The translations under genes and the position numbers were made by a program. This document shows, in pieces, positions 169 to 43,423 of a DNA stretch of 64,000 bases (position 1 is the first letter of the stretch; each line of letters begins with the position of its first letter). Source of the DNA: Ignavibacteriales bacterium. GTDB lineage: Bacteria; Bacteroidota; Ignavibacteria; Ignavibacteriales; DAOSCP01. The notes beneath the pieces are model-generated. The model had not been told where the DNA came from. It was given only the letters and a program-made list of their open reading frames with translations, and made no database searches. The stretch is taken from contig DAOSVM010000005.1 of NCBI GenBank assembly GCA_035379625.1, positions 29,833 through 93,832 of the forward strand, in the 5' to 3' direction.

Positions 169-684
169 TTAGCTCAGACAGTGTAAGTTTATGCCTCTTG
201 CAGCTTGATGAAAGCTGCAAGAGGCCAGCGGGCCGGTAAGGGCTCGCTAAAATTTTTCTAATAGCTCATTTACAAGGGGGAATAAAATCCTATTGACAGC
301 GTTGTTGGAGAGCAAAGGTTGTAAATTATGGTATATCATAATTACAAATATATAGATTATACAATTATATTGTAAAAACAAATATATTTTCAAAAATTTA
401 ATTATATCGTTAATACAAATATATTGTAAATACAAATATATTTTGTATAATTGCCATTATATCGTAATTACAATTATATCGAAGATACGAATATATTATA
501 TGAATTTTAAAATTTTCAACCTACATATAAAACTTACTTCAATAATTATTTGTATAAAAATATAAATGTTGTAAGTGGTAGATAATATGGTAGATAAAGG
601 GGGATAATTAGAATAATTTTTGGGCTTTAGCCCGCCCGTGCGCCTTCGTGCGCACGGGCTTTATGCTTATACCGTCTGAGCTAA
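169..684 (-). mobile_element. MITE-like ORF-less element, copy A (516 bp; inverted relative to B-D)
   Basis: TIRs are ttagctcagacagtgtaag (169-) and gcttataccgtctgagctaa (665-684). A perfect 14-bp hairpin lies at 193-206/212-225. A 10-bp hairpin gcccgtgcgc/gcgcacgggc lies at 634-643/650-659, with a mini-hairpin gggc/gccc at 622-625/630-633. The AT-rich core holds 7 phased 13-mers. The right end is the reverse complement of the left end of copy B. Confidence 0.75.
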
Positions 685-8976: not shown

Positions 8977-10260
8977 ATGAAGTTTTTAATCAAATTATTT
9001 GTTTTAATATTAATTTTTTTATCTATATGTCTTGCACAAAAACCATATATTAAAAATTATAATAAAGGAATGGATTTTTTTAATAAAGGTGAATATGATA
9101 AAGCTATACAATGGTTTGAAAAATCTATAAAAGCAAAAAATGATTGGGATACAGTTTATGTAAGTTTAGGATTATGTTATTTTAATAAAGAAGATTATTC
9201 AGCAGCTTTACAAAATTTTGATAAAGCTATTTCCTTAAATAAAAATAACTCTTCTGCATATTACAATTCTGCCAAAGCTTACTCAAAAATAGGAAAAGAT
9301 AACGATGCATTAAAGTCATATAAGGCCGCATATGATATTGATACTTTAAATTTAGATGCTTTAGCACAAGTAGGTTTATTAAGTTATAAATTAAAAGATT
9401 ACAATCAATCACTTTGGGCATATAAAAAACTTGCTAAAGTTAAAACTGCTGATGGTCCTATCTTCTATAATTTGGGGAATGCATATTTTAATTTAGAAGA
9501 TTATGATAATGCAATAGTTGCATATAATACAGCAATTAAAAAAAATAAAAAAAATGCTGATTATTATTATGCCATTGGAATGGCTTATTTAAAGAATGCA
9601 AATTATCCAAAAGCTAAGGCCAATTTTCTAATAGCTTATCGATTAAATCCGAGAAAATATTATAATTTATTTGATATTATTGATTATTCAGGTATTCAGT
9701 TTGAATTTTTGAGAACTAATTTCTTCGGTGATGAACTTATTTCGAAAACTTCAAATGGTATTAGAATAGGTATAAATTTACAAACTGTTGAAATTAAAAC
9801 TAATTTATTGAATAAAATTACAGGTTTACCTATTTGGTCTAAAAATATAAATCCTTTATCATATGGTGCAATTGTTTCATATTTTTATAATCCTTTATCA
9901 TTAGATTTTAGTTTTAATAGTTTAACATATGATTTGAATGATGCTAAAATTTATTTCCCATTGCCTCCATATAATCCCAATGGGAGTTTCCCTAAGACTT
10001 TAAAAATTAATAATTATGAAATTTTTATAAATTATAGCCCTTTTGTTTTTTGGGGGAAATTTTATAATGACTATTCAGTAGGTTATAATGCAACTACTAT
10101 TGATTACAATAATGACAAGTATCAATATAGATCTTTAGTTTTATCTACTGGAATTAATTTTAAATACAATAAAATATGGGCAGGAGTAAAGTATAATTAT
10201 TATACAAATAAAGATTTAAATACTAAGCTACAATTTAATGTTGGATTGTGGATATGGTAA
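8977..10260 (+). CDS. TPR-repeat protein with a C-terminal beta-rich (possible outer-membrane barrel) region
   Basis: Signal peptide. Several 34-aa TPR-like units (YNKGMDFFNKGEYDKAIQWFEKSIK, YFNKEDYSAALQNFDKAISL, and others). The C-terminal ~200 aa has an alternating hydrophobic pattern and ends in ...GLWIW. A 3-bp gap to the upstream gene suggests coupling. Confidence 0.7.
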   Translation: MKFLIKLFVLILIFLSICLAQKPYIKNYNKGMDFFNKGEYDKAIQWFEKSIKAKNDWDTVYVSLGLCYFNKEDYSAALQNFDKAISLNKNNSSAYYNSAKAYSKIGKDNDALKSYKAAYDIDTLNLDALAQVGLLSYKLKDYNQSLWAYKKLAKVKTADGPIFYNLGNAYFNLEDYDNAIVAYNTAIKKNKKNADYYYAIGMAYLKNANYPKAKANFLIAYRLNPRKYYNLFDIIDYSGIQFEFLRTNFFGDELISKTSNGIRIGINLQTVEIKTNLLNKITGLPIWSKNINPLSYGAIVSYFYNPLSLDFSFNSLTYDLNDAKIYFPLPPYNPNGSFPKTLKINNYEIFINYSPFVFWGKFYNDYSVGYNATTIDYNNDKYQYRSLVLSTGINFKYNKIWAGVKYNYYTNKDLNTKLQFNVGLWIW

Positions 10261-12863
10261 AGAAAGTAATAAATATAAGTTTATTAGTTATATCCTTTGT
10301 ACTGGCTCAAACAAAACCGGATTGGAAAGTAAACCCAAGTTTAGCTGGGTCGAATCATACTATTGTTATACCATTGGATGCAAATCCTAAAGTTAATGGT
10401 GTACCATTGCAAGCAGGTGATTATATTGGTGTATTTTATGATTCTTTAGGTATTAAATTTGCTTGTGGTGGTTTTAAGATGTGGGAAGGGGATAAAAATA
10501 TTGCAATTTCTGCGTTAGGTGATGATATTTTTACAAATGATAAGAAAGAAGGTTTTGCTGCAAATGAAAATTTTGTATGGAAGGTATGGAAAAAAAGTAA
10601 TAATCAAATTTATGATGTAGCTGTACAATTTAAATCTGGACAAGTTGTTTATACTCCTAATGGAACGTCTATTATTCAATCTTTAGGAGACAAAGTATTA
10701 CCTCCTTGGACCTTTAATAAAACAACTGTTTTTCATACAATAGTATTACCTAAAAGTTTAAATATTGTTGTAAACAAAATTAAACAAGTTCCACCTATTT
10801 ATGTTGGCGGTTTTTTCGATTCATTAGGTAACAAAGCCTGTGCAGGTTATGGAGAGTGGAATGGTGCAGCTGATGTTGAATTTAAAATTTATGGAGATAA
10901 TGCAAATACTGTTCCAAAGGAAGGTTTTTTTAATAATGAAAAGATTACTTTTTATATTTTTATTGTTGCAGAAAGAAAAATTATTGAAGTTAAAGCGAAA
11001 GTAAGAAGCGATTCCCCAAATGATACTTTCTTTATTCCAAATGGTAGAACTATTTTAGATTCTTTAATATCATTAAAAATAATTTCTGCAACCGATCCCG
11101 GTTGGGTTTTTACTCCAACAACTAATTATCATAAAGTAATTTTCCCATCCCGCCAGTCCGTTAAAATTGATGATTATTATATTGAAGATGGTGATTTTGT
11201 GGGTGCATTTTATAAAAAAAGTAATGATACTCTCGCTTGTGCTGGTTTTTTCCAATGGAATGGAGATATCCCCCAAGAATTAACTATTTGGGCTGATTAT
11301 CCCGATACGCGCAACAAAGAGGGATATTCAGTAGGGGATAAAATAACATTGTTGGTTTGGAGAAAGGCATCTCAATCTACCTTTTTTACTAATGTTAAAT
11401 GGATTAACGATAAATATAATTATCCAAATGATAGTATTTTTGCGATTTCTTCAATTTATAAAGATACTATTAAATTGGGTTATGGTTTAAGTGGGGTTGA
11501 GTTACTAACGAATGTTATTAGTGAAAAATATTTTCTCGAAAAGTCATTTTTCTTCAATGATTATAAGCTGCAAACTAGCTACAGAATTATTAGCTTGCCA
11601 GGTGTTCCAATTAGGTCGAATTCATATTTATTAGATTCTTTATTCCAAGGCGTTCCAAATAGAGATTGGATTGGTTTTAAATATAGTTCAGATGGTAAAC
11701 TTATACCTTATGAAAATAAAACACGTGGAGTTTTTAAATTTGCTCCAGGAAAAGCATTTTGGGTTCTTTCTAAGGTGCCATTAATTATTGAAAGAAGTAA
11801 TTATTTCCAAGCATATAATGTACCGACTAATGTAATTTTAAAAAATGATAAAATTGTTGCTTATTACGAAATTCCTTTGGATACAACTGGTAATTTATGG
11901 AATATTATTGCTAATCCATTTGATCAGCCAGTAAATTGGAAAGATATTATTGATTTTAATAATTCAGATTTTTTAAATAAACCAATATTCGAAACAGATA
12001 ATATTTATGAGTATTTAGGCACACAAGGATATAAAAAACAAGCAATTCTTGAACCTTATAGAGGATATTTTTACTATAATAGAACAAAACTTAAAAAATT
12101 AAAAATTCCTTATCCATTAAACAAAACTTTTAATAAAATAAGTAGTAATAATTATCAATATTTGAATTTAATGATAAGTAATGAACAAGATACAACTAAT
12201 TTAATTGTTTGGAATGTTCCCACATCAACAAAAGATTATGATAGATATGACGAATTATTGCCGCCAATTTCTTTTAATTCATTAACTGCTTTTATAGAAA
12301 ATACGAGTGCAAATATTGATTATAAAAAATTTAAATCTGATGCAAGATATATTGGTATTGGGCAAAAATATAACCTAAAAGTAGTTAGTAAAAATGGTGG
12401 AATTAAATTCAAATTAGATAATAAATTAAATGATGATTATCGAATTATTTTCGTCAATAAATCTAATGGTAAGGTTATTGATTTGAAGAATTTAAAGGAA
12501 TTTGAATATACTAATAATTTAAGTGATACATTATCATTTGATTTATTAATTGGTACAGAAGAGTTTTTCAAAAATACAAATGTAAAAATCGAGAAATTTG
12601 AGCTTTATCAAAATTATCCAAATCCATTTAACCCTAAAACAAAAATTAATTTTTCTATACCAGAAAATCTTTCAAATTATTTAGTAGAATTAAAGGTATA
12701 TGATATTTTGGGGAGAGAAATAGCTACACTTATTAATAAAAACCTGCCTTCAGGAATTTACAGTGTTGATTTTGATGGAAACAATTTATCGTCAGGTGTT
12801 TATTTTGCAAAATTAAGTGTTGCAAATAAGACAAAATTTATTAAGATGCAATTGATAAAATAG
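10248..12863 (+). CDS. T9SS cargo protein with three copies of an uncharacterised ~110-aa module
   Basis: Signal peptide. The module core is (GD[YF][IV]G[VA]FY...CAG...W.G) and occurs three times. The C-terminal T9SS domain is NYPNPFNPKTKINFSIP...GVYFAKL...KMQLIK. It overlaps the upstream gene by 13 nt. Confidence 0.8.
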   Translation: MDMVKKVINISLLVISFVLAQTKPDWKVNPSLAGSNHTIVIPLDANPKVNGVPLQAGDYIGVFYDSLGIKFACGGFKMWEGDKNIAISALGDDIFTNDKKEGFAANENFVWKVWKKSNNQIYDVAVQFKSGQVVYTPNGTSIIQSLGDKVLPPWTFNKTTVFHTIVLPKSLNIVVNKIKQVPPIYVGGFFDSLGNKACAGYGEWNGAADVEFKIYGDNANTVPKEGFFNNEKITFYIFIVAERKIIEVKAKVRSDSPNDTFFIPNGRTILDSLISLKIISATDPGWVFTPTTNYHKVIFPSRQSVKIDDYYIEDGDFVGAFYKKSNDTLACAGFFQWNGDIPQELTIWADYPDTRNKEGYSVGDKITLLVWRKASQSTFFTNVKWINDKYNYPNDSIFAISSIYKDTIKLGYGLSGVELLTNVISEKYFLEKSFFFNDYKLQTSYRIISLPGVPIRSNSYLLDSLFQGVPNRDWIGFKYSSDGKLIPYENKTRGVFKFAPGKAFWVLSKVPLIIERSNYFQAYNVPTNVILKNDKIVAYYEIPLDTTGNLWNIIANPFDQPVNWKDIIDFNNSDFLNKPIFETDNIYEYLGTQGYKKQAILEPYRGYFYYNRTKLKKLKIPYPLNKTFNKISSNNYQYLNLMISNEQDTTNLIVWNVPTSTKDYDRYDELLPPISFNSLTAFIENTSANIDYKKFKSDARYIGIGQKYNLKVVSKNGGIKFKLDNKLNDDYRIIFVNKSNGKVIDLKNLKEFEYTNNLSDTLSFDLLIGTEEFFKNTNVKIEKFELYQNYPNPFNPKTKINFSIPENLSNYLVELKVYDILGREIATLINKNLPSGIYSVDFDGNNLSSGVYFAKLSVANKTKFIKMQLIK

Positions 12864-13072
12864 AATGGAATATATTGATTTTTTATAAGATCTATTTATG
12901 GATATTTGATAACTTTAAGATAGGTAAATTTTTAATTGTTTCCGTTATCTATTTGAATAAACAGATATTTTATTACCGCCATGTAGGTATTAGTATTAAA
13001 TAAATGGTATGTTTTTGGAACTATAGAAATACTTTTGTTGTTATTTTTATTTAACTGTTATGAGGAAATTTT

Positions 13073-14713
13073 ATGACACAAATTTTTAAGGTTCCACAAT
13101 TAGGTGAAAATATATCAGAAGCTACAATAGTAAAACTTTATGTTAAAGTTGGAGATACTGTTAAAAAAGATCAAATTTTGATGGAAGTTGAAGCCGGAAA
13201 AGCAAATCTAGAAATACAGGCAGATTTCGATGGTAAGATAACAAAATTGTTAGCAAATGAAGGGGATAAAATTCTTCCTTTGGGTGATATTGTTGAATAT
13301 GAGGTTACGGTTGAAACACCTCAGGACCCAATTATAAAGGAAGAGTTACCGGCGCAACAGACCACACTTACACCGTCTGAGCCAATTAAAGAAGAGAAAA
13401 AAAATAATATTTCTGAAGAAATTGAAGTATTATTACCAAATTTGGGAGAGAATATTGCAGAGGCTACCGTTGTTAAGGTAAATATTAAGGTTGGTGATGA
13501 AATTAAGAAAAATGAAATTGTTCTTGAGGTTGAAACCGGTAAGGCATCATTGGAGATTACATCGGAGTATGACGGTTCGATTAAAGCTGTTTTTGTTAAA
13601 GAAGGGGATAAAATTAAAATAGGGGATAAAATTTATACTATATTGGCTCGGACAGAAATAAGCTTGCCTTCGGATAAACCGAAGGAGGTTTCACCTGAAA
13701 TTAAAAAAGAAGTTCAAGTTGACACAAAGATTGAACCTAAACAAGAAAAAATAGCTAACACTGATGAATTTAAAGTTGATACGTATAATGTAAGTAAAAA
13801 TATTTTTGTGCTTGCATCACCTTCAGTAAGGAAATTTGCAAGAGAAATTGGAGTAACAATATCTGACGTAAAACCATCTGATGGCAAAAGAGTTACAATT
13901 GAAGATGTGAAGCAGCATGCTAAAAATATATTGCAAAATTTAGGTAAAGCTGAAGTTAATCAAGCTAAAATTCCACAGAGCGGATATTTTGAACCGCTTC
14001 CAGATTTTACTAAGTGGGGAGATATAAAAGCTGAGGAATTAAGTAATATCCGAAGAGTAACCGCGCAGCATTTACATTTTTCGTGGTCGCAAATACCGCA
14101 TGTTACGCAGTTTGATAAGGCAGATATTACAGATTTAGAAGAGTTTCGTTTGAAGCTTGTTAAAAAGTATCCTGATTCGAAGATTACAATTACATCCATA
14201 ATTGCAAAAGTTCTAAGCTTAGCATTGAAGAAATTTCCACAATTTAATTCAAGTTTAGATTTACAAAATAATAAATTAATTTATAAGAATTATTACCATA
14301 TTGGTATTGCAGTTGATACCGACAAAGGTTTGGTTGTTCCAGTAGTAAGGGATGTTGACAAAAAATCATTATTTGATATATCAAAGGATATAAATTTATT
14401 AGCAATCAAAGCAAGAGATAAAAAATTATCATTAGAAGAGATGCAGGGGGGAACATTTACAATATCGAATTTAGGTGGTATTGGAGGTACCTATTTTACA
14501 CCGATAGTAAATTATCCTGAAGTTGCTATATTAGGAATATCTAGAAGTTCGTATGAGCCCAAATATAATGGAACAACTTTTGAGCCAAGATTGATGTTGC
14601 CTTTATCGTTATCATATGATCATAGAGTAATAGATGGAGCTGATGGGATAAGATTTTTGAGATACATTATTGATATTTTAGAAAATCCATACAATATGTT
14701 GATACAATTATAA
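13073..14713 (+). CDS. 2-oxoacid dehydrogenase E2 component (dihydrolipoamide acyltransferase), two lipoyl domains
   Basis: Two lipoyl motifs (MEVEAGKANLEI, LEVETGKASLEI). E3-binding domain ASPSVRKFAREIGV. Catalytic motif SYDHRVIDGADG. Confidence 0.9.
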   Translation: MTQIFKVPQLGENISEATIVKLYVKVGDTVKKDQILMEVEAGKANLEIQADFDGKITKLLANEGDKILPLGDIVEYEVTVETPQDPIIKEELPAQQTTLTPSEPIKEEKKNNISEEIEVLLPNLGENIAEATVVKVNIKVGDEIKKNEIVLEVETGKASLEITSEYDGSIKAVFVKEGDKIKIGDKIYTILARTEISLPSDKPKEVSPEIKKEVQVDTKIEPKQEKIANTDEFKVDTYNVSKNIFVLASPSVRKFAREIGVTISDVKPSDGKRVTIEDVKQHAKNILQNLGKAEVNQAKIPQSGYFEPLPDFTKWGDIKAEELSNIRRVTAQHLHFSWSQIPHVTQFDKADITDLEEFRLKLVKKYPDSKITITSIIAKVLSLALKKFPQFNSSLDLQNNKLIYKNYYHIGIAVDTDKGLVVPVVRDVDKKSLFDISKDINLLAIKARDKKLSLEEMQGGTFTISNLGGIGGTYFTPIVNYPEVAILGISRSSYEPKYNGTTFEPRLMLPLSLSYDHRVIDGADGIRFLRYIIDILENPYNMLIQL

Positions 14714-14727
14714 AATTGAATATAAGT

Positions 14728-14757
14728 AAAAAGCCGTTAAAGATAACGGCTTTTTTG
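14728..14757 (+). terminator. rho-independent terminator after E2
   Basis: aaaaagccgtta-aaga-taacggctttttt. Confidence 0.8.
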
Positions 14758-14764
14758 TTTTAAA

Positions 14765-14797
14765 ATAAAAAAAAGCTACTTATTAATGAAGTAGCTA
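14765..14797 (-). terminator. rho-independent terminator after tRNA-Ser
   Basis: On the minus strand the sequence reads agctacttc-attaat-aagtagct followed by a T-run. Confidence 0.7.
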
Positions 14798-14799
14798 TT

Positions 14800-14891
14800 T
14801 GGCGGAAGGGGAGGGATTCGAACCCTCGGTAGGGGTTTAACCCTACGACGGTTTAGCAAACCGTTGGTTTAAGCCACTCACCCACCCTTCC
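14800..14891 (-). tRNA. tRNA-Ser (anticodon GCU), class II with long variable arm, CCA encoded
   Basis: The reverse complement is GGAAGGGTGGGTGAGTGGCTTAAACCAACGGTTTGCTAAACCGTCGTAGGGTTAAACCCCTACCGAGGGTTCGAATCCCTCCCCTTCCGCCA. Acceptor stem is GGAAGGG/CCCTTCC. Anticodon stem CGGTT/AACCG carries loop TGCTAAA. The T-arm contains GGTTCGAATCC. Confidence 0.93.
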
Positions 14892-14984
14892 GTAGCTTAA
14901 ATTTTTTGAACTATAAATATACAATATTATTTGTAAAAAATCAAGTAAAATTGTAATTTGTAAGCAAAATTTTATAAAGGAAAT

Positions 14985-16949
14985 ATGTTTATGAAAAAGA
15001 TATTAATTATATTTGTTTTAGCTTATTGGCTTTTTGCTCAAAATATGGATGGTGCTTTTTTTTGTAGTAAGAAAAAAATTGAACGTTATACCAATATTGG
15101 ATTAAAGGAAAATTTAAATTTGATACAAAGGAATTATGATGTTTTGAAGTATAAAATAACTGTTGATTTAAGAAATAATTATGTTTATCCTTACGCAAGG
15201 TTTTTTACAGGTAATGTAGAAATTGATATAAGATTAGATTCTGTTGCCAAATACATTGAATTGGATGCTAATTCCCAATCAATTACTATCGATTCTATTA
15301 TTGGTGATGTAAAATCGTATCAACATAGTAACAATAAATTGTTAATAAATTTTAACAATACATATTTACCGGAGATAGAAACAAAACTTAAAATTTACTA
15401 TAAACATAATGATATATCGGATGGAGCTTTTTACGTTAATGATGGCTTTGTTTTTACAGATTGTGAACCAATAGGTGCAAGGAATTGGTTCCCTTGTAAT
15501 GATTTACCATCCGATAAGGCATTGATGGAATTAGTAGCATTTACACCTTCAAATGTGCTTTTGGGTTCTAATGGAATTTTGGCCGATTCTGTTAATTATG
15601 GTAGTTATATAAAATATCGTTGGGTAAGTAATCAAGCAATTGCAACTTATTTAATTGTAATAACTTCCAGAGTAAATTACAATTTAAATGAGTTTTATGT
15701 TTTTGATAAATGGCAAAATAAATATATACCAATAAGATTATATTATAATACAGGTGAAGCAATCTCAGACGAATTAAAGCAATCGATAATAAATGCATAC
15801 AATTATTTTTCGGAGAAATGGTATCCGCATCCATTTGATAAAAATGGTTTTGCTACATTAAATAGCGATTTTAGTTGGGGAGGGATGGAAAATCAGACTT
15901 TAACTAGTTTATGTCCTGGTTGTTGGGATGAAAATTTGTTAATTCACGAATTTGCACATCAGTGGTTCGGTGATATGGTAACTTGTAAAACTTGGGCAGA
16001 TATTTGGCTTAATGAAGGTTTTGCAACTTGGGCTGAAGCATATTGGCTTGAAAGGGATGGTGGATATAATGCATATTTGAGTGATATAAAGAAAAAAGCA
16101 AATTATTATTTGCAAAATAATCCGGGTTATGCAATTTATAATCCTTCGTGGGCAGATAATCTACCGAACGTAAATACACTTTTTAATTATGCAATAACAT
16201 ATTGTAAAGGGGCTTGTGTTGTTCATCTTTTAAAATATACGCTTGGTGATAGTCTATTTTTTAATGTGATAAATAAATATTTCAATACTTACAAATACCA
16301 GAGTGCAACAATAAAAGATTTTTTTAATATTGTAACTTCTGTAACAGGTGATGATTACAATTGGTTTATGGAGCAATGGATAAAAAGGCCTAATCATCCA
16401 ATTTATGAAAATGCTTATGATATAATTGATAATGGAGAAGGTTCAACTGTGCATTTCAAATTTTATCAAACAAATACGCAATTTTATATTATGCCCGTAA
16501 AATTGAAATTTAAGTTTCAGGACCTGAGTGATACAACAATTAAAGTGTGGAATAATTATAATGGTGAAATTTTTACATTTAATTTTCCTAAAAAAGTAAC
16601 ACAGGTAATATTTGATCCTTTAAATGAAATAGTTTTGAAAAAGGCAACAACAGTAGTTGGAATAGAAGATTTATCCAGCCAGCAAGAGGAGGAAACCGTA
16701 AAAGTATATCCTAATCCTTTTAATAACTCATCATCAGTATCTTTTAAATTAGCAAAATCGGCAAATGTTAGTATTATTTTATATGATATTTTAGGTAACA
16801 AAGTTTTAAATATCACATCAAATCAACACATGCCAGCGGGAAGTTATCAATACCCAATTCAATTAAATAATTTTTCATCAGGAGTTTATATTTTAAGCTT
16901 TATAAAAGATGGGGGAGTGAAAAATTTTAAGATAAATTATATAAAATAA
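14985..16949 (+). CDS. M1-family zinc aminopeptidase with T9SS C-terminal sorting domain
   Basis: GGMENQ (a GAMEN-type motif). HEFAHQWFGD...WLNEGFATW gives the HExxH-X18-E signature. C-terminal domain is VKVYPNPFNNSSSVSFKL...GVYILSF. Confidence 0.9.
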   Translation: MFMKKILIIFVLAYWLFAQNMDGAFFCSKKKIERYTNIGLKENLNLIQRNYDVLKYKITVDLRNNYVYPYARFFTGNVEIDIRLDSVAKYIELDANSQSITIDSIIGDVKSYQHSNNKLLINFNNTYLPEIETKLKIYYKHNDISDGAFYVNDGFVFTDCEPIGARNWFPCNDLPSDKALMELVAFTPSNVLLGSNGILADSVNYGSYIKYRWVSNQAIATYLIVITSRVNYNLNEFYVFDKWQNKYIPIRLYYNTGEAISDELKQSIINAYNYFSEKWYPHPFDKNGFATLNSDFSWGGMENQTLTSLCPGCWDENLLIHEFAHQWFGDMVTCKTWADIWLNEGFATWAEAYWLERDGGYNAYLSDIKKKANYYLQNNPGYAIYNPSWADNLPNVNTLFNYAITYCKGACVVHLLKYTLGDSLFFNVINKYFNTYKYQSATIKDFFNIVTSVTGDDYNWFMEQWIKRPNHPIYENAYDIIDNGEGSTVHFKFYQTNTQFYIMPVKLKFKFQDLSDTTIKVWNNYNGEIFTFNFPKKVTQVIFDPLNEIVLKKATTVVGIEDLSSQQEEETVKVYPNPFNNSSSVSFKLAKSANVSIILYDILGNKVLNITSNQHMPAGSYQYPIQLNNFSSGVYILSFIKDGGVKNFKINYIK

Positions 16950-17000
16950 TTGTATTATAATAATAAAAATATTAATTTTAATTTTTAATATTATTAATTT

Positions 17001-19313
17001 ATGGGGGTACTAGTTATGGCACAATTAGCTCAAGTAATTGCTGTTGACAAAGATAAATGCGTTAATTGTCATCAGTGTATTCAAGTTTGCCCTGTTAAAT
17101 ATTGTAATGTTGTAAAAGAAGAAGGTTATGTTGATGTTGATCCTGATTTATGTATTGGTTGTGGTAACTGTATTGATGCTTGTACTCACGATGCTAGAAT
17201 AGGTATTGATGATTTTGAAAAATGGATAAATGATTTGAAATGTGGTGTTAATATGGTTGCAATAGTTGCCCCCGCTATAGCTGCTAATTTCCCACATCAA
17301 TATTTGAATCTTAATGGATGGCTAAAATCTATAGGTGTTAAAGCAATTTTTGATGTAAGTTTTGGTGCAGAACTTACAATTAAATCTTATTTAGAGCATG
17401 TCAAAAAAAATAAACCAAAAGCTGTTATAGCCCAACCTTGTCCTGCTTTGGTTACTTATATTCAAATTTATCAACCAGAATTGCTACCTTATTTAGCTCC
17501 CGCTGATAGTCCAATGGCACATACCATGAAAATGATAAAGGAATTTTATCCAGAGTATAGCAATCATAAAATTGTAGTTATATCTCCTTGTGTTGCAAAA
17601 AGAAGGGAATTTGATGAAATTGGATATGGAGATTATAATGTTACGATGCGAAGAATACAAGAATATTTTGATGAAAAAAGAATATATCTTTCAAGTTATC
17701 CTGAAGTTGATTATGATAATCCGCCGGCAGAAAGAGCAGTATTATTTTCATCTCCAGGTGGTTTATTAGAAACTGCAATAAGAGAAGTGCCGGGAATTAG
17801 AAATAGTGCTAGAAAAATTGAAGGTCCACATATTCTTTATCATTACTTTGAAAAATTACCAAAAATGATTCAAGAAGGTATAAATCCTTTACTTATAGAT
17901 TGTCTTAATTGTGATATGGGTTGTAATGGCGGAACTGGTACACTTTCAAGAAATAAATCAATTGACGAAGTAGAATATCTTATTTCTGAAAGAAGCAAGG
18001 AAATGCAAAAAAGATATGAAAGCAAATTGACAAAAAAAATATCCAAATCTAAGATAAGAAGTATTATAAATAGGTATTGGAAAGAAGGCTTATACGATAG
18101 AAGTTATAAAAATTTATCAAATTTATTTAAAAATAAAATTAAAATACCGAATAAAAGTGAAATTGATAAGCTTTTTGCAATTATGAAAAAAGAAACTAAA
18201 AATGATATAAAAAATTGTCCATCATGCGGTTATAACAATTGTGAAAAATTTGCAATAGCTGTATATAATGATATTTATAATAAAGAGAGTTGTTATGTGT
18301 ATAATCATCAAATAGTAGAAAAATCTTTAGAGTATATTGAACGAAATTATGATAATGTTGATAAGATAGCTTCAGGTGATTTATCAGTTAAATTTTATGA
18401 TGAAGGTGATGAAAGAATTGCTGTTTTCTTTAAAGATTTAAATAAATCATTTGATAAGGTTCGTGCTTTAATAAAAGAAGTTTTAGAATTGAGTGAAAAT
18501 TTAGCTGCTGCATCTGGTGAAATTTCTGCGAGTGTTGAAAAGATAACAGTTGGTATTAGAGAACAAACTAATAACACAGATGAAATAAACAGAGAAATTA
18601 TTGAATTAAATAATTCTTTTAAATTAACTTCTGAAGCTGTAACCGAAACATTAAGAAAAGCTGAAGTATCAACAAATAATGCAGAAAATGGTAAAAAAGT
18701 AATAGATAATAACATTCAATCTATTTCGGAAATTTCTAAAACAGTATTTGAGGCTGCCAAAACGGTTGAACAATTGGGTAAAAATAGTGATCAAATTGGT
18801 CAAATTGCCTCAGCTATTGATGAAATAGCTGACCAAACAAATTTACTTGCATTAAATGCAGCAATTGAAGCAGCTCGTGCAGGTGAGCAGGGAAGAGGTT
18901 TTGCTGTTGTAGCAGATGAGGTAAGGAAATTGGCAGAAAGAACCGGAAAAGCTACTAAAGAAATTTCAGAAATTATTAGATCAATTCAAAATGAGACTAA
19001 ATTAGCTGTTGAAAATATGCAAAAAGGCACAGTGGCTGTTGAAGTTTCTCAGAATTTATCTAAGGATGTAGAAAGTAAAATTAATCAAATAAAAGATAAT
19101 GTCATTGATGTGGCTAAGAAAGTTAATGTAATATATGAAGATAGTTATAGATTAAGTGAAAAATTATCAACTATTGCACAAAATGTAGAACAAATTTCAA
19201 TTATATCAAAAGATAGCAGTTATGGCGTGGAACAAATAGCTAAAGCAATAAATGATTTAGCAATGGTTTCTCATAACTTGAATGAAATGATAGCCCAGTT
19301 CAAGATTAGCTAA
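17001..19313 (+). CDS. soluble chemoreceptor: 2x[4Fe-4S] ferredoxin + [FeFe]-hydrogenase-like domain fused to an MCP signalling domain
   Basis: Two ferredoxin motifs: [12 protein letters not shown] and [11 protein letters not shown]. Hydrogenase-like motifs: [17 protein letters not shown] and [13 protein letters not shown]. The MCP core is [42 protein letters not shown]. No transmembrane segment is present. Confidence 0.85.
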
Positions 19314-24021: not shown

Positions 24022-24450
24022 TTACTTAATTTCTATTTGTTTTGCAGCTGGTTTTTCAGGTTCTTTCTTTTGCATTGTAATTGTAAGTACACCATTTTCG
24101 TAATTAGCTTCAATTGTGTCTGTTAAGACATCATCACCGAGGTTAAAGCTTCTTGTAAACGCTCCTTCAACTCGTTCAGATAAATAATATTTCTTATCTT
24201 TTTCTGTTTTTTCAAATCTTTTTTCACCTTGGATTGTGAGAACATTATTATCAAGAGTTACTTTAATATCATCTTTTTTGAAACCAGGAACTTCAATCTC
24301 GAAGTTTAATTTTCCATCTTTTTCATAAACATCGATTGATGGATATAATTTTGTTGTTGAAGGAGCTGCAAAGACATCAGTTACATAACGTTCAAATTCT
24401 TTAATAGCATTTTCAAATTCTTTGAACGGATTATACTTTACTAATGCCAT
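24022..24450 (-). CDS. Hsp20/alpha-crystallin small heat-shock protein
   Basis: Alpha-crystallin domain: ...IEVPGFKKDDIKVTLDNNVLTIQGEK...GAFTRSFNL...ANYENGVLTI. Confidence 0.9.
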   Translation of the reverse strand: MALVKYNPFKEFENAIKEFERYVTDVFAAPSTTKLYPSIDVYEKDGKLNFEIEVPGFKKDDIKVTLDNNVLTIQGEKRFEKTEKDKKYYLSERVEGAFTRSFNLGDDVLTDTIEANYENGVLTITMQKKEPEKPAAKQIEIK

Positions 24451-24474: not shown

Positions 24475-24897
24475 TTATTTTATTTCTATTTGTTTTACTT
24501 CTGGTTTAACAGGTTCTATTTTGTTTAATGTTATTGTCAAAACTCCGTTTTCAAAACTAGCTGAAATATTTTCTTTGTCAATTGTTTCATCAAGTGTAAA
24601 GCTTCTTGAGAATGAACCACTCATTCTTTCGCTAAAGTAATACTTCCTATCTTTCTTTTCAGTTTCTAATTTCTTTTCTCCCGAAATTGTTAACATGTTT
24701 TCTTCTAAGGTTATTTTTACATCGTCCTTTTTGAAACCAGGTATTTCTACTTCTAAGATTATTTTGTTATCTTCTTCATAAGCATCAACTTTTACTAAAT
24801 GATTATAATTTACATTGTTTCTTGTTTGTACATCATTTAGTAAATTATCGAATTCTTTGAATAAAGATAACACTGGATTAAATCTTACTAATGTCAT
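24475..24897 (-). CDS. Hsp20/alpha-crystallin small heat-shock protein (second copy)
   Basis: Paralogue of the gene above (VEIPGFKKDDVKITLEENMLTISGEK...GSFSRSFTL...ASFENGVLTI). I start at MTLVRFNP (ATG 24897), which is preceded by GGAGGG. The longer ORF to 25110 adds an implausible Cys/Ile-rich extension. Confidence 0.88.
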   Translation of the reverse strand: MTLVRFNPVLSLFKEFDNLLNDVQTRNNVNYNHLVKVDAYEEDNKIILEVEIPGFKKDDVKITLEENMLTISGEKKLETEKKDRKYYFSERMSGSFSRSFTLDETIDKENISASFENGVLTITLNKIEPVKPEVKQIEIK

Positions 24898-25232
24898 GGC
24901 ACCCTCCAAATTTTTAATTTTGTTATTTAATTTCGCCAATAATAATACAACTACCGTGCCAAAAGTTGCAATATCTTTACAACTAATTGATGAACAATGA
25001 GTTATAAAAATTACAATAAAAATAACACATAATTGGTTACATGTCGTACAATATGACAAAATGATATATATTAAGACAAAAAAGCAAAAAATATGATAAA
25101 AATAATGCACTCTCTAATTGTCAATAACTTGAAAATATTTTTGTTAGAGCTATTGACTTTTATAAATTACCTTAATAAATTGATTTTAAGGTCTACAATT
25201 ATTGAGCGAATTATAAAAAAACAGGAGGTATT

Positions 25233-36118: not shown

Positions 36119-36125
36119 ATTTATT

Positions 36126-36148
36126 GGCCCGGCATAGCCGGGTTTTTT
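36126..36148 (+). terminator. rho-independent terminator after htpG
   Basis: cccggc-ata-gccggg followed by tttttt. Confidence 0.8.
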
Positions 36149-36155
36149 ATAATTA

Positions 36156-36652
36156 TTAGCTCAGACAGTGTAAGCATAAAGCCCGTGCGCCTGGCGGCGC
36201 ACGGGCGGGCTGAAGCCCAAAAAAATAATATTCCATTTAAGCGCCATAACCACCACATTACCAACCAGTTACAATATTTATATTTTTCATCAAGAATAAA
36301 AATTTTATGAAATATTTTTTATAATTTACCGGCAAGTTTTCAAATCTTATAATATATTCGTAAATACGATATAATAGCTTTAACAATATAATTGTAAATG
36401 CAATTATACTATAAAAAACATAGCATCATATGTAAAAATTTGCAAAATTACATTTTAGCTTAGTCAAAAGATTAATTTTTATCAAACACTCCTTATCCTA
36501 CGGGTTGCCAGGTATTTTGGAAAGATATAAGTATAAAGGCCAAAGCACTACACTTTGTTAGGTGTTAAAGAAAAGATTTTATGCGGGCCGTTCCGGCCCG
36601 CGCCCACGTGCGGCAACGCCGCACGTGGGCTATGCTTATACCGTCTGAGCTA
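36156..36652 (+). mobile_element. MITE-like ORF-less element, copy B (497 bp)
   Basis: Alpha end: TIR ttagctcagacagtgtaagc (36156-75), hairpin gcccgtgcgc/gcgcacgggc (36181-90/36197-206), then gggc-tgaa-gccc and an A-run. Beta end: hairpins gcgggccg/cggcccgc (36583-90/36594-601) and gcccacgtgcggc/gccgcacgtgggc (36602-14/36618-30), then TIR gcttataccgtctgagcta (36634-52). The core is AT-rich. Confidence 0.75.
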
Positions 36653-36842
36653 TGATAAAAAAATGAATTTTTTAATATTTTTGAAAATAAATTTTGTTTT
36701 TTGCATCATATCATTTCTATAACTACAATTTATGGAATTAAATTATTGTTAAAATTTTTTTAAATAAAGAAAAAAAGTTAGAAATTGTTTATATTATAAT
36801 TTTAAATTTGGCATTTTTTTTAAAATTTTAGTGAGGGGTTAA

Positions 36843-39800
36843 ATGGGTAGAAAAAAAATTACAGTGGATGGTAACGAAGCCGCTGCTTATGTTGCCTACC
36901 GACTTAGTGAAGTTATTTCCATATATCCTATTACACCATCATCACCAATGGGAGAATTTAGTGATGATTGGTCAGCAAAAAAAGTTAAAAATATTTGGGG
37001 AACAGTACCAACTGTAATGGAAATGCAAAGTGAAGGGGGTGCAGCTGGTGCTGTACACGGTGCTTTGCAAGCTGGTACGTTGTCAACAACATTTACAGCA
37101 TCCCAAGGATTGCTTTTGATGATCCCAAATATGTATAAAATTGCAGGTGAATTAACACCTACAGTTTTTCACGTGACTGCTAGAGCTTTGGCTGCTGCTG
37201 CTTTATCTATTTTTGGTGATCATTCCGATGTTATGTCTGTAAGACAAACTGGTTTTGCTATGTTGGCTTCTACATCTGTGCAAGAAGTTATGGATATGGC
37301 TCTTATTGCTCACGCTTCAACATTAAAATCACGAGTTCCTTTCTTACACTTTTTCGATGGTTTTAGAACATCTCACGAAGTTTCCAAAATTGAGGCGCTT
37401 AGTGAAGAAGATATCAAAGCGATGATTGATAACGAATGGGTTTATGAACATAAAAGAAGAGCGTTAAATCCAGATAATCCTTTTATTAGAGGTACAGCTC
37501 AAAATCCAGATGTTTATTTCCAAGGTAGAGAAACTGTAAATAAATTCTATTTAGCAACACCGGCTATTGTTCAAGAAATGATGGATAAATTTGCTAAAAT
37601 AGTAGGAAGACAATATAATTTATTCGATTATTATGGTAGCCCAAATGCTGAAAGAGTTATAGTTATTATTGGTAGCGGTGCTCAAACTGCTGAAGTTACT
37701 GCTAAAGTTTTAAATGAAAAATATGGTTACAATGTTGGTGTGTTGGTTGTAAGATTATTTAGACCTTTCTCAGTTGAACACTTCTTGAAAGTTTTACCAA
37801 AAACTGTTAAAAAAATTGCTGTTTTAGATAGAACAAAAGAACCTGGAAGTCTTGGTGAACCTTTATATTTGGATGTAACTTCCGCTATTGCCGAAGGTAT
37901 GAATAATGGTACTTTACAATTTGAAAAATTCCCTAAAATTATTGGTGGAAGATACGGCTTAGGTTCAAAAGAATTTACTCCTGGTATGGTTAAAGCTATT
38001 TACGATGAATTAGCAAAAGATGATCCTAAAAATCATTTTACAGTCGGTATAGATGACGATGTTACAAATACAAGCTTAAGCTATGATGAAAACTTCCCAT
38101 TAGGTATTAAAACATTTAGAGCAATGTTCTACGGTTTAGGTGCTGATGGTACAGTCGGTGCTAACAAAAATACAATCAAAATTATTGGTGAAGAGACTGA
38201 CTATTACGTTCAAGGTTATTTTGTTTACGATTCAAAAAAATCTGGCTCGATGACAATTTCACACTTAAGATTTGGGGAAGAACCTATTAAAGCTGAATTT
38301 TTAATTAAAGAAGCTGAATTTGTTGCCTGCCATCAGTTCCAATTTGTTGAAAGAATTAACGTTGTTGAAAACTTACAAGAAAATGGCGTATTCTTATTGA
38401 ATTCTCCTTACAGTGTTGAAGAAACTTGGAAAAAATTACCAAAGACAATACAACAAGAAATTATAAAGAAAAAAGCAAAATTCTATGTAATTGATGCTTA
38501 TGAAGTTGCAAAGAATACTGGTATGGGCACAAGAATTAATACAATAATGCAAACTTGTTTCTTTGCAATATCTGGCGTATTACCGAAAGAACAAGCTATA
38601 GAAAAAATTAAAAATGCTATTAAAAAAACATACAGCGCCAAAGGTGAAGAAGTTGTTAAGAAAAACTTTGCGGCAGTAGATCACACTTTGGAACATCTAC
38701 ACGAGTTAAAATATGAAGGTTTACCAATTTCAGATTTCGATTTAAAGCCACCTGTACCAGAACAAGCTCCTGAATATGTAAAAGAAACATTAGGTAAAAT
38801 GATTGCCGGTTATGGCGATAAAGTAAAAGTTAGTGAAATGCCAGTTGATGGTACATTCCCATCAGCCACAACACAATGGGAAAAGAGAAATATTGCTTTA
38901 GATGTGCCAATTTGGGAAAGCGATTTATGTATACAATGCGGTAAATGTGCTTTTGTATGCCCACACGCTGCAATTAGAACAAAAGCCTATGATAAAGCAG
39001 TTTTAGCAAATGCACCAGCCGAATTTAAAGCAGTTGCTGCAAAAGGTAAAGAATTTGATGAAAATACATATTATACAGTTCAGGTAGCACCAGAAGATTG
39101 TACAGGTTGCGGATTGTGCGTTGAGGCTTGCCCAGCTAAAGATAAATCCGATGCTAGCAGAAAAGCTATTAATATGCAATCTGTATTGGATATTAAAGAA
39201 AGAGAAATCAAAAATTACGATTTTTTCCTTTCTATTCCAGAATTTGATAGAAGCAAAATATCAGTTAATACAATAAAAGGATCACAATTATTACAACCAT
39301 TATTTGAATATTCTGGTGCGTGCGCTGGTTGTGGTGAAACTCCTTACGTTAAATTAGTTTCACAGTTGTTTGGTGATAGATTAATTGTTGCAAACGCAAC
39401 AGGTTGTTCCTCAATTTATGGTGGAAACTTGCCAACAACACCTTGGAGCGTAAACAAAGAAGGAAGAGGCCCTGCTTGGTCTAATTCATTGTTCGAAGAT
39501 AATGCTGAATTTGGTTTAGGAATGAGGCTAGCTGTAGATAAGAACACAGAATTTGCGGTAGAATTGATATCACATCACAAAAATTCTATTGGTGTTGAGC
39601 TTGTTGAAGCAATTTTGAGTAACAGTCAAAAGACTGAAAATGAAATTCAAATACAACGTGAAAATGTTGCAAAATTAAAAGAAAAAATTAGTGGTATTAG
39701 CGAGCAATGGGCAAAAGATTTGTTATCCGTTGCAGATTATTTAGTTAAAAAATCTGTATGGATTATTGGTGGTGATGGTTGGGCATACGATATAGGTTAC

Positions 39801-40403
39801 GGTGGTTTAGATCACGTTTTAGCATCTGGTAAAAATGTTAATATTCTTGTACTTGATACAGAAGTTTATTCAAATACAGGTGGTCAGGCATCAAAATCTA
39901 CACCAATTGGTGCGGTAGCAAAATTTGCTGCTTCAGGTAAACCAGCAATGAAAAAAGATTTAGCTATGTTGGCAATGACATATCAAAATGTATATGTTGC
40001 ACGTGTAGCAATGGGCGCAAACGATTTACACACATTAAAAGTATTCCTTGAAGCTGAAGCTTATGATGGACCATCCATAATTATTGCATATTCTCATTGT
40101 ATCGCTCACGGTATTGATATGGCTAAAGGTCTTGAACAACAAAAATTAGCTGTAGAATCAGGCCATTGGCCTTTAATGCGATTCAATCCAGATTTAATGG
40201 CTGAAGGCAAAAATCCATTTGTTCTCGATAGTAAATCGCCTAAAGTATCATTGGATAATTATATTTATCGTGAGACAAGATACAAAATGCTTACAAAAGC
40301 AGATCCAGAGCACGCAAAAGAATTGTTGGATAAAGCTCAAGAGATGGTTAACCTTAAGACAAAGATTTATCAAAACTTTGGTAAGCTATACGAAAACAAT
40401 TAA
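36843..40403 (+). CDS. nifJ: pyruvate:ferredoxin (flavodoxin) oxidoreductase
   Basis: 1186-aa single-polypeptide PFOR. It has two ferredoxin motifs, CIQCGKCAFVCP and CTGCGLCVEACP. The TPP region is GGDGWAYDIGYGGLDH. Confidence 0.96.
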   Translation: MGRKKITVDGNEAAAYVAYRLSEVISIYPITPSSPMGEFSDDWSAKKVKNIWGTVPTVMEMQSEGGAAGAVHGALQAGTLSTTFTASQGLLLMIPNMYKIAGELTPTVFHVTARALAAAALSIFGDHSDVMSVRQTGFAMLASTSVQEVMDMALIAHASTLKSRVPFLHFFDGFRTSHEVSKIEALSEEDIKAMIDNEWVYEHKRRALNPDNPFIRGTAQNPDVYFQGRETVNKFYLATPAIVQEMMDKFAKIVGRQYNLFDYYGSPNAERVIVIIGSGAQTAEVTAKVLNEKYGYNVGVLVVRLFRPFSVEHFLKVLPKTVKKIAVLDRTKEPGSLGEPLYLDVTSAIAEGMNNGTLQFEKFPKIIGGRYGLGSKEFTPGMVKAIYDELAKDDPKNHFTVGIDDDVTNTSLSYDENFPLGIKTFRAMFYGLGADGTVGANKNTIKIIGEETDYYVQGYFVYDSKKSGSMTISHLRFGEEPIKAEFLIKEAEFVACHQFQFVERINVVENLQENGVFLLNSPYSVEETWKKLPKTIQQEIIKKKAKFYVIDAYEVAKNTGMGTRINTIMQTCFFAISGVLPKEQAIEKIKNAIKKTYSAKGEEVVKKNFAAVDHTLEHLHELKYEGLPISDFDLKPPVPEQAPEYVKETLGKMIAGYGDKVKVSEMPVDGTFPSATTQWEKRNIALDVPIWESDLCIQCGKCAFVCPHAAIRTKAYDKAVLANAPAEFKAVAAKGKEFDENTYYTVQVAPEDCTGCGLCVEACPAKDKSDASRKAINMQSVLDIKEREIKNYDFFLSIPEFDRSKISVNTIKGSQLLQPLFEYSGACAGCGETPYVKLVSQLFGDRLIVANATGCSSIYGGNLPTTPWSVNKEGRGPAWSNSLFEDNAEFGLGMRLAVDKNTEFAVELISHHKNSIGVELVEAILSNSQKTENEIQIQRENVAKLKEKISGISEQWAKDLLSVADYLVKKSVWIIGGDGWAYDIGYGGLDHVLASGKNVNILVLDTEVYSNTGGQASKSTPIGAVAKFAASGKPAMKKDLAMLAMTYQNVYVARVAMGANDLHTLKVFLEAEAYDGPSIIIAYSHCIAHGIDMAKGLEQQKLAVESGHWPLMRFNPDLMAEGKNPFVLDSKSPKVSLDNYIYRETRYKMLTKADPEHAKELLDKAQEMVNLKTKIYQNFGKLYENN

Positions 40404-40409
40404 AATAAA

Positions 40410-40436
40410 GGCCGCCCGTAAGGGCGGTTTTTTTTT
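40410..40436 (+). terminator. rho-independent terminator after nifJ
   Basis: ccgccc-gtaa-gggcgg followed by ttttttttt. Confidence 0.85.
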
Positions 40437-40448
40437 ATCTCCTTTTAT

Positions 40449-40918
40449 TTAGCTCAGACGGTGTAAGCTTAGCCCGCTTGCGCGGGCAGGGCTAAAGCCC
40501 AGAATAAATATTTAACATACAACCCCATATCAACAATATAATCAACACCTTACGCTATTTATTTAGCATAAAATCAACTAAAATTTATAGTTTTTTATAC
40601 AAATAATATATTCGTATTTGCAATATATTTGTATTTACGATATATTAGCAATTATTAAAAATATCTTTGTAATTGTATTATATTTGTATTTGTAATAATA
40701 TTGTATCTACGATATATATTATCTTCAAAATTATATTGTTTTATAGATATAGTTTTAAAAGCTGTAAGTAATTAAAATATTGCAGGAATTTTTTTTGTAG
40801 ATAAGAAGATTTTTAATTGTTAGCAAAAATGCTTCGCCAACCAACTTTATATTAAGGAAGAAAATTAATTCCCCTTACAAAAGGGGATTAAAGGCTATGC
40901 TTATACTGTCCGAGCTAA
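40449..40918 (+). mobile_element. MITE-like ORF-less element, copy C (470 bp)
   Basis: Alpha end: TIR ttagctcagacggtgtaagc (40449-68), hairpin gcccgc-ttgc-gcgggc (40472-87), then gggc-taaa-gccc. Beta end: hairpin tcccctt-acaa-aagggga (40870-87) and TIR gcttatactgtccgagctaa (40899-918). The core holds 17-bp phased motifs. Confidence 0.75.
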
Positions 40919-40941
40919 TGAAAAATTTTTTTTTCAATAAT

Positions 40942-40973
40942 AAAAAAAAGCCCTTGCTTGGTTAGCAAGGGCT
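40942..40973 (-). terminator. rho-independent terminator after the T9SS gene
   Basis: Minus strand: agcccttgct-aacca-agcaagggct followed by tttttttt. Confidence 0.8.
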
Positions 40974-40991
40974 AGATAAATAATTATATCT

Positions 40992-42849: not shown

Positions 42850-42942
42850 TTTAACTCCTTGTTAATATTTGTTATATATAAATTATGTAAAATAAATATA
42901 ATTGTCAAGTTAAATATTTTGTAAACACGATATATATTTTTA

Positions 42943-43353: not shown

Positions 43354-43423
43354 TGAAAATTTTTATTTTTAATTTGAGTTATATTCTTAAATTGTTTATA
43401 TTACTTAAAAAAAAGTATGAATT

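Follow-up and report, generated by a model that had tools for sequence, protein, structure and literature searches.

What is the short motif that recurs every 17 bp at several places in the DNA of an Ignavibacteriales bacterium, and what keeps it there? The question arose from a preliminary description of a stretch of 64,000 nucleotides (GenBank assembly GCA_035379625.1, contig DAOSVM010000005.1, positions 29,833 to 93,832 of the forward strand), which reported arrays of a 13-nt motif in the core of a repeated element. We refer to this whole 64-kb stretch as the window and use its coordinates throughout. The analysis shows that the 17-bp motif is the sub-repeat of a minisatellite at the center of a non-coding element bounded by inverted repeats; we regard this account of its anatomy and dynamics as very probable. 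With respect to function we favor, at a probability of roughly 0.45, a candidate reading in which the minisatellite lies in an element that resembles MITEs (miniature inverted-repeat transposable elements) and a sequence-specific protein recognizes the minisatellite's units as double-stranded DNA.

The 17-bp motif in the window

The elements are recognized by a 20-bp terminal inverted repeat (TIR), TTAGCTCRGACRGTRTAAGC, which has 11 matches in the window, where none is expected. Eight of these bound four elements (A to D), one degenerate match lies at a relic (E) and two are inside open reading frames (ORFs). The elements and their parts are the following:

169-684, minus strand: element A, a complete copy with an AT-type core; TIRs at 169-188 (+) and 665-684 (-)
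332-500, minus strand: core array of A, about three modules of 54-55 bp (Tandem Repeats Finder; lag-17 z = 5.9)
193-225 and 227-248: two G+C-rich hairpins at the left end of A, GCCTCTTGCAGC..GCTGCAAGAGGC and AGCGGGCC..GGGCTCGCT
622-633 and 634-659: two hairpins at the right end of A, GGGCTTTAGCCC and GCCCGTGCGC..GCGCACGGGC, followed by TTTATGCTTA
36156-36653, plus strand: element B, in the reference orientation; core 36348-36415, about 1.3 modules
40449-40918, plus strand: element C; core 40597-40722, two modules
42943-43353, plus strand: element D; core 43110-43260, one clear module and degenerate units
58297-58890, minus strand: relic E; degenerate left TIR 58297-58316 (3 mismatches)

The genes on either side of element A, serS and a GDSL-lipase gene, both point their 3' ends at it. 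Relative to copy B, the family reference, element A is inverted (BLAST: 143 bits on the minus strand versus 30 on the plus strand). The family core TACRATATAATTG is found on the minus strand of copy A, and TACRAWTATATY is its plus-strand reading. Relic E has one module at 58829-58886, in a stretch with 20% G+C.

Direct reading and regex scans located units of copy A that start with TAC at 343, 360, 414, 431, 469 and 486; the unit at 377 is degenerate and begins with AAC. The spacings between the seven units are 17, 17, 37, 17, 38 and 17 bp. On the reverse strand, unit ends were located by the scans at 36362, 36396, 40616, 40633, 40688, 43146 and 43253, and relic E has plus-strand units at 58848 and 58865. 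Apart from the unit at 377, the positions and spacings given in the preliminary description for copy A are correct, and the units it placed in copies B, C and D and in the relic were found as described.

All 12 matches to the strict motif TACRAWTATATY that the window contains are within the five elements. When up to two mismatches are allowed, the 15-mer TACRAWTATATYGTA is found 24 times compared to 3.97 ± 2.21 times in dinucleotide shuffles; none of 100 shuffles reproduced the count of 24. Autocorrelation at a lag of 17 gave z values of 5.9 for A, 4.6 for C, 2.6 for D, 2.3 for B and 1.7 for E. Within the window, the 17-bp phase is hence significant by itself only in A and C and is weak in B, D and E. 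Tandem Repeats Finder called two periods in copy A, one of 17 (9.3 copies) and one of 54 (2.5 copies, 82% matches); the period of 17 was also called in copies C and E.

The repeat family and its chassis

The elements in the window belong to a family. From Ignavibacteriales genome and metagenome contigs we collected 76 distinct TIR-paired copies with varied flanks, which are 151-805 bp long (median 536 bp); 71 of the 76 could be oriented. One metagenome scan with the TIR gave 106 loci, and a genome scan matched an Ignavibacteriales metagenome-assembled genome (MAG). Only two strain contigs and one contig from a sister species overlap the window at the megablast level; the family therefore spans several lineages. 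It is abundant, with five copies in the window, at least 4-5 per contig of about 100 kb and, in the contigs examined, a density of one copy or more per ~15-25 kb.

All copies have a common chassis, in which the TIR on each side is followed by two G+C-rich hairpins. These hairpins vary in sequence (26 arm variants) and maintain their pairing, with 935 Watson-Crick pairs versus 15 wobble pairs. A counterpart of the left-end hairpin of A was found in 69 of the 71 oriented copies, again with compensated arm variants. The distal hairpin, in the last ~25-75 nt before the right TIR (e.g. 36602-36630), is perfectly paired in spite of at least 26 arm sequences, including GCAGC/GCTGC, GCGGC/GCCGC and CACGTG. 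This compensated variation implies that at the ends of the element, in contrast to the core, selection acts on a folded strand. In an RNAalifold analysis of 17 right-hand segments, support was limited to the two G+C hairpins.

The longest open frames in the elements have 142 codons; they occur in copies with a G+C-type core (see below) and read through this repetitive core. To judge from their sequence, the open frames look like repeat artefacts, and the elements appear to have no credible coding capacity. A search of the window against Rfam 15 at the gathering threshold returned only a tRNA-Ser, and copies A and B gave nothing credible at E ≤ 10. Literature searches for the TIR sequence and for repeats of Ignavibacteria returned nothing. 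The family is genuine and non-random, and neither Rfam nor the searchable literature has a description of it.

One complete AT-type element was found on a contig labeled 'uncultured Clostridium sp.' (CAYXOL010000098.1, 2979-3533). This contig shares a protein with an element-rich metagenome contig, and it is probably a misbinned Ignavibacteriales contig.

Three units form a module

The family unit consists of the directional 13-nt core TACRATATAATTG and four variable bases. In the 71 oriented copies, which come from contigs other than that of the window, the core matches the family orientation 266 times and the opposite strand 42 times. The distances between units on the same strand are 17 bp (99 pairs), 55 bp (70), 72 bp (40), 38 bp (35), 54 bp (25) and 110 bp (22). 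The 17-bp phase hence recurs outside the window, and in an unrelated copy Tandem Repeats Finder called the periods 17 and 54.

These distances reflect a higher-order repeat. Three 17-bp units plus 4 bp make a module of 54-55 bp, and an alignment of 89 modules, 84 of them distinct, gave the consensus AAAAATATATTYGTAWW / TACAATATAATTGTATW / TACGATATAWTWGYAAT / TTTT. The three units are not equivalent: unit 1 lacks the TAC, while at the R position unit 2 favors A and unit 3 favors G. The same differences are seen in all copies, so the 17-bp sub-structure is old. By a strict unit-pair call there are 1-3 modules per element; 2-10 recognizable AT units are present in 59 of the 76 elements.

The module also explains the inverted half-sites that had been reported in front of each group of units. 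The sequence is indeed there, but it is the module's unit 3 on the opposite strand, and it looks like a half-site because each unit is quasi-palindromic (TACAATATAATTGTA). The term iteron-like, on the other hand, describes the array well, with its head-to-tail units, rigid 17-bp spacing, conserved 13-nt core and variable 4-nt linkers. What the preliminary description overlooked is the 55-bp module and the variation in copy number that makes the array behave as a minisatellite. A CRISPR array was considered and ruled out; the units abut with only 4-nt linkers, and there are no unique spacers.

Arrays gain and lose modules between strains

Over 15 kb, one strain contig (L005) matches the window at 98-99% identity. 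At the locus of copy B, which is common to both, L005 has three modules and the window about one, a difference of 110 bp. Of the two copies of C in L005, one is without 72 bp of the core. The arrays thus gain and lose whole modules between strains and behave as a minisatellite, or variable-number tandem repeat (VNTR); slippage or unequal recombination would account for these changes. The repeats abut head to tail with periods of 17 and 54-55 bp and their number is strain-variable, which is the structure of a minisatellite.

The same strain contig differs from the window in a further respect. Its positions 10028-17618, compared to window 40404-43423, include an extra 3.8 kb with a gene for a 1338-aa BNR/T9SS-tail protein, the second element C and a second T9SS tail. 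A gene for a 619-aa protein, intact in L005, is split in the window into the ORFs 40992-42425 and 42385-42849.

Conservation of the core and of the spacing

Is the array more than a by-product of tandem duplication? In the 89 modules the 13 core positions are conserved to 76-99%, with the exception of the R position, while the four linker positions are conserved to merely 49-72%. Even the rare G and C bases of the core are kept in DNA with 30% G+C (C2 0.90, G12 0.84, C19 0.88, G20 0.80). The spacing within a module is rigid, with 17 bp in 99 pairs and 16 bp in 3, and modules are spaced by 54-56 bp. The AT array is also retained across sub-families whose remaining internal segments cannot be aligned. 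The difference between core and linkers, the rigid spacing, the fixed orientation and the persistence across sub-families argue for selection on the sequence of the unit.

The motif is largely confined to the elements. Its density is 0.92-1.46 per kb inside the elements versus 0.003-0.013 per kb outside of them, and 0.006-0.017 per kb in the non-ORF DNA outside the elements. This corresponds to an enrichment of ~70-280-fold; other intergenic DNA is nearly devoid of the motif.

The same data bear on the alternative that the array is a functionless minisatellite, i.e. selfish or neutral tandem DNA, which arose from a duplicated AT-rich palindrome and in which young, homogenized copies mimic conservation. 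The strain-variable number of modules fits this explanation, as does the fact that the array is missing in 3 of the 76 copies and replaced by another core in 14. Furthermore, the right-hand segment of type 1 is conserved about as well as the modules, and minisatellites without a proven function are known from inside other MITEs (PMC4596501). Against it speaks the finding that, over 84 distinct modules and at least three lineages, the linkers drift and the core with its rare G and C is kept. The constant differences between units 1, 2 and 3 point to an old sub-structure and not to recent slippage, orientation and 17-bp spacing are fixed, and the array persists where the other internal segments have become unalignable. 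We consider a functionless array an unlikely explanation, although it is the strongest of the alternatives.

The core does not behave as a folded strand

An alternative target of selection is a hairpin or cruciform, in which the quasi-palindromic units and a module palindrome of ~42 bp fold as single-stranded DNA or RNA. Such folding might accompany transposition or take place in a transcript, as in BOX, ERIC and Correia elements. It is true that every unit and every module is an imperfect palindrome and that the plus strand folds slightly better by way of G-T pairs (-5.7 versus -4.6 kcal/mol, p = 0.002). In copies with the G+C-type core, one AT palindrome is clamped by GGTGGCA/TGCCACC arms, the hairpins of the chassis vary with compensation, and the fold of the whole element reaches z = -10.

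The core itself, however, gives a different picture. The variable positions of the palindrome do not covary: for position -6 versus 20 the odds ratio is 0.92 (p = 1.0), and a G at position 3 was matched by a C at position 11 in 0 of 23 cases. The module fold amounts to only about -5.7 kcal/mol, and as single-stranded DNA the core has z values between -1.5 and -1.9. Conservation is also asymmetric; TAC is conserved to 87-95% and its palindromic partners T13 and A14 to 58-68%. A role as a hairpin is thus very unlikely, and the missing covariation together with the weak single-strand folding favors recognition of the unit as double-stranded DNA.

Promoter-like boxes in the units

The preliminary description had also offered the possibility that the elements are promoter cassettes. 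This is weakened with respect to the neighboring genes, since ~72% of the element ends (41 of 58 and 40 of 54) face the 3' end of a gene. Half of the fully scored elements are located between convergent genes, and among the scored elements there is no preference in orientation relative to the downstream genes. What the data leave is a promoter array that acts inside the element: the -10/-7-like boxes of the units, which all point to the 'right' end, would start a non-coding transcript that runs across the conserved right-hand segment, with the hairpins inside the TIRs as outward terminators.

Several observations are consistent with such an internal array. TATAAT occupies positions 5-10 of the units and is conserved to 76-99%; units hold either TATAAT or TATAATTG, and TATAATTG/TATATTTG resemble the TAnnTTTG box of Bacteroidota. 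Within the elements TAnnTTTG is found 131 times on the plus strand and 50 times on the minus strand, and it is also strand-biased upstream of genes (69 versus 45); TATAAT upstream of genes shows no such bias (79 versus 88). Copy A contains matches of 11/12 to TTTACA-N18-TATAAT. At both ends of the element the outward-reading strand of the terminal hairpins folds slightly better (p = 0.0002-0.0008). Good conservation of the right-hand segment is seen in 17 copies, and a constant distance of ~36 nt separates this segment from the last TATAAT upstream of it. Finally, segments of BrickBuilt, a repeat element from another host (see below), were promoter-active in E. coli reporters (PMC4596501).

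Other features are difficult to reconcile with promoters. Neither promoter type has a role for the TAC at positions 0-2, the best-conserved bases. Complete two-box matches are few, with 9 on the plus strand versus 5 on the minus strand for TTG-N17-21-TAnnTTTG and 6 versus 4 for TTKACA-N16-18-TATAAT. Most units carry TATAATTG, which is one mismatch away from TAnnTTTG. The only conserved RNA structure downstream is that of the G+C hairpins, there is no Rfam match, and the elements, facing gene 3' ends, can hardly serve neighboring genes. Gibbs sampling of 244 upstream regions returned only AT-rich patterns of low information and defined no promoter consensus for the host. Altogether an internal promoter array is improbable, slightly more so than a functionless minisatellite, but among the alternatives that give the array a function it is the chief one.

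A plasmid-type origin is very unlikely

Iteron and centromere arrays in general look similar to these groups of 17-bp direct repeats; 17-bp iterons occur in RK2, and tandem repeats are found in sopC and parC. The elements could on these grounds be replication-origin iterons or the partition site of an integrated plasmid-like element. This explanation is close to refuted. Dozens of copies reside on chromosomes amid housekeeping genes with no rep or par gene nearby, and the searches of 72,556 plasmids and 50,697 phage records gave no match.

Genomic position and the question of mobility

The elements often follow transcription terminators. A terminator-like hairpin with a T-tail points at the element at 52 of 151 ends, compared to 100 of 675 gene 3' flanks in general. 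The distance between the stem and the TIR peaks at 9-14 nt; in a second group, at 21-35 nt, an additional AAAAAWACTCTTCAT lies in between. Examples in the window are at 133-168, 36124-36155 and 40407-40448, and others were found at loci L014, L015, L019, L043 and L073. Two flanking hairpins, AAGCGAGC..GCTTGCTT and AGCTCTCTT..AAGGGAGCT, recur at many loci. The pattern suggests that a terminator or its T-run is the target, or else that the end of the element is longer than the TIR.

With TIRs at both ends (A to D and the 76 copies), a small non-coding body and many dispersed copies, the elements have the anatomy of MITEs. TA is present at both ends in 44 of the 76 elements, either as a duplication or as part of the TIR. 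The strains share elements A to D, and element A is present in every strain that was recovered with look-ups of window proteins. In the sister species the terminator of the pyruvate:ferredoxin oxidoreductase (PFOR) gene is present without element C behind it; the DNA downstream is non-homologous there.

Candidates for autonomous copies were inspected and rejected: between TIR pairs at a distance of 0.9-3.5 kb lie genes for HsdS, EPSP synthase, GMP synthase, Sua5 and the like, and no transposases; the ORFs are of the housekeeping kind. There is no multi-copy protein family among 685 ORFs, the ORFs that adjoin solo TIRs are unremarkable, and the plasmid, phage and viral-contig searches gave no match.

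A proposed protein array on double-stranded DNA

Under the reading that we favor, selection would keep the units as recognition sites in double-stranded DNA. The reader would be one sequence-specific protein, of which several copies would bind next to each other at intervals of 17 bp, three per module. The likeliest candidate for such a reader would be a protein that acts on the element itself, for example a mobilizing transposase or an accessory factor. The idea of multi-site protein binding had already been put forward in the preliminary description; recognition of double-stranded DNA by several protein copies is the version that the lack of covariation and the weak fold favor, while the protein itself was not found. 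As a mechanism the protein array is tentative, and we give it somewhat less weight than the reading as a whole.

A number of findings weigh against this interpretation. No gene for a binding protein and no Rep or Par gene was found, and ~1 Mb of element-rich draft contigs contains neither a transposase nor an autonomous copy with these TIRs. A transposase would have to possess a second specificity, given that the core motif is unlike the TIR. To our knowledge, a central array in a single orientation is also unlike the site layout of the known bacterial transposases; Tn7, Mu and IS21 have subterminal sites that are inverted from one end to the other. Neighboring sites 17 bp apart lie on different faces of the helix. 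The chassis can dispense with the AT array, because 14 of the 76 copies carry the G+C-type core instead, and part of the conservation could stem from recent common descent and from homogenization within arrays. As to mobility, a search for target duplications of 2-9 bp at four boundary offsets found none beyond the possible TA, and a search for empty sites with joined flanks gave 0 matches; the name MITE is drawn from anatomy and dispersal, and mobility is putative.

A second type of core

The 14 copies with a G+C-type core have the common TIRs and right-hand hairpins. Their core consists of alternating GTGGCA/TGCCAC arms 10-11 bp apart, i.e. about one helical turn. Most of them retain one AT palindrome, clamped by GGTGGCA...TGCCACC, as in GGTGGCAATTATATCGTATATACAATATAATTGCCACC. 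Examples are:

L109, 11133-11614: copy with G+C-type core
L029, 1344-1874: copy with G+C-type core
L079, 6104-6532 and 12098-12480: two copies with G+C-type core
L104, 4217-4589: copy with G+C-type core
L080, 9794-10114: copy with G+C-type core
L105, 338-1048: copy with G+C-type core

The chassis thus holds one or the other of two arrays built from short dyad motifs. The two core types admit a broader and rather speculative interpretation, which we consider improbable. The chassis might be a mobile vehicle that seeks out terminators and is loaded with exchangeable cassettes, each an array of recognition sites; one cassette would be AT-type and the other G+C-type. If this is true, the element distributes dense arrays of binding sites for specific proteins over the chromosome, either as DNA or as repeat RNA. 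The arrays could then be decoys, sponges or nucleation sites and not a mere by-product of transposition.

Comparison with known repeat elements

The closest analogue is BrickBuilt from Porphyromonas gingivalis (Klein et al. 2015, PMC4596501). This MITE contains a minisatellite with a repeat of 23 nt, which is longer in some strains and shorter in others through expansion and contraction. It has leader and tail segments and IS5-like TIRs (GAGACCTTTGCA), and some of its segments are promoter-active (PMC4596501). Both families are non-coding, intergenic and multi-copy, with short TIRs, asymmetric flanks and no transposase inside. Both contain a spacer-free, head-to-tail minisatellite with a strain-variable number of repeats, both are often located beside genes of the type IX secretion system (T9SS; PorSS C-terminal domain), and their hosts belong to the same superphylum. 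The sequences, however, are unrelated; BrickBuilt has a 23-nt repeat and the TIR GAGACCTTTGCA, the present family 17-bp units and the TIR TTAGCTCRGACRGTRTAAGC. In the present family the repeat forms a hierarchy of 17 bp within 55 bp and is quasi-palindromic; paired G+C hairpins at the ends and an alternative G+C-type core are found in this family only. BrickBuilt alone has a known parent IS family. Judged by sequence, the present family is an analogue of BrickBuilt and not a member of it.

MITEPgRS / MITE464 from P. gingivalis contains 41-nt internal tandem repeats (PMC4596501). It is likewise a MITE with internal direct repeats of tens of bp; the repeat, the TIR and the host are different, and the comparison is by description only.

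The BOX element of Streptococcus pneumoniae has the structure boxA-boxB(n)-boxC with a middle module of ~45 bp and is thought to act via RNA folding. It is a modular, dispersed, non-coding intergenic repeat with a variable number of middle modules, like the present elements. It has no comparable perfect 20-bp TIR, and the core described here has no folding signal. The Correia elements of Neisseria (CREE/NEMIS) are 100-155 bp long, have a single central site for IHF and are often co-transcribed with genes. They resemble the present family as TIR-bounded MITEs flanked by TA, with promoter-like boxes and a central site for a host factor, but they lack an internal tandem array. Plasmid iterons such as those in RK2 oriV (17 bp) are directional, clustered repeats that are read by several copies of one protein. 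They lie beside a rep gene, with one origin per replicon and a spacing of roughly 22 bp, whereas the present repeats abut and occur in many dispersed chromosomal copies with no rep gene; the likeness is confined to the appearance of the repeats.

Other features of the window

The genes that neighbor elements in the window encode SerS, a GDSL lipase, HSP90, PFOR, a T9SS protein and a TonB-dependent receptor. PFOR (36843-40403, 1186 aa) is identical to a protein from an Ignavibacteriales MAG. For a 534-aa protein adjoining E, protein look-ups of other strains returned no record. The Logan contigs L116-L120, from the GDSL-lipase locus, end ~10-100 bp past the gene, at or just before element A.

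The two TIR matches outside the elements are:

13366-13385, minus strand: solo TIR-like sequence in an ORF, in the linker of a lipoyl-domain acyltransferase-like protein; exact 16-mer GCTCAGACGGTGTAAG
50561-50580, plus strand: solo TIR-like sequence in the ORF of a type I phosphomannose isomerase

Both sites contain the exact 16-mer GCTCRGACRGTRTAAG in an intact ORF, in different reading frames, and their similarity to the element ends extends over ~35-40 nt. They could be what is left, in frame, of old insertions.

The TIR opens with the 8 nt TAGCTCAG (169-176 and all other TIRs), which are the same as the conserved start of the D-arm of tRNAs. A scan of the window with ARAGORN called only a tRNA-Ser at 14800-14891 and none at a TIR. 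The likeness may be a coincidence or a trace of the origin of the TIR.

Relic E is part of a stretch of 840 bp with ~20% G+C (58300-59140), which lies upstream of the TonB-dependent receptor gene. The stretch contains more low-complexity A-rich arrays, of which Tandem Repeats Finder called 58693-58796 with a period of 17. Elsewhere in the window two adjacent minus-strand ORFs, 24022-24450 and 24475-25110, are paralogous, with 73% identity over a 100-nt stretch; the former encodes an Hsp20/alpha-crystallin protein (Pfam).

Significance

The elements described here are an abundant repeat family from a poorly studied phylum. They represent the second clear case in bacteria of a minisatellite inside a MITE-like element, and one that is better resolved than the first, with its hierarchy of 17 and 55 bp and its position-specific conservation. 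In practical terms the elements break short-read assemblies and may mislead the prediction of promoters and terminators; at the same time they offer VNTR loci for the typing of strains. If a protein reads the 13-nt core, the arrays would be a ready-made, high-affinity multi-site substrate with which this protein could be found.

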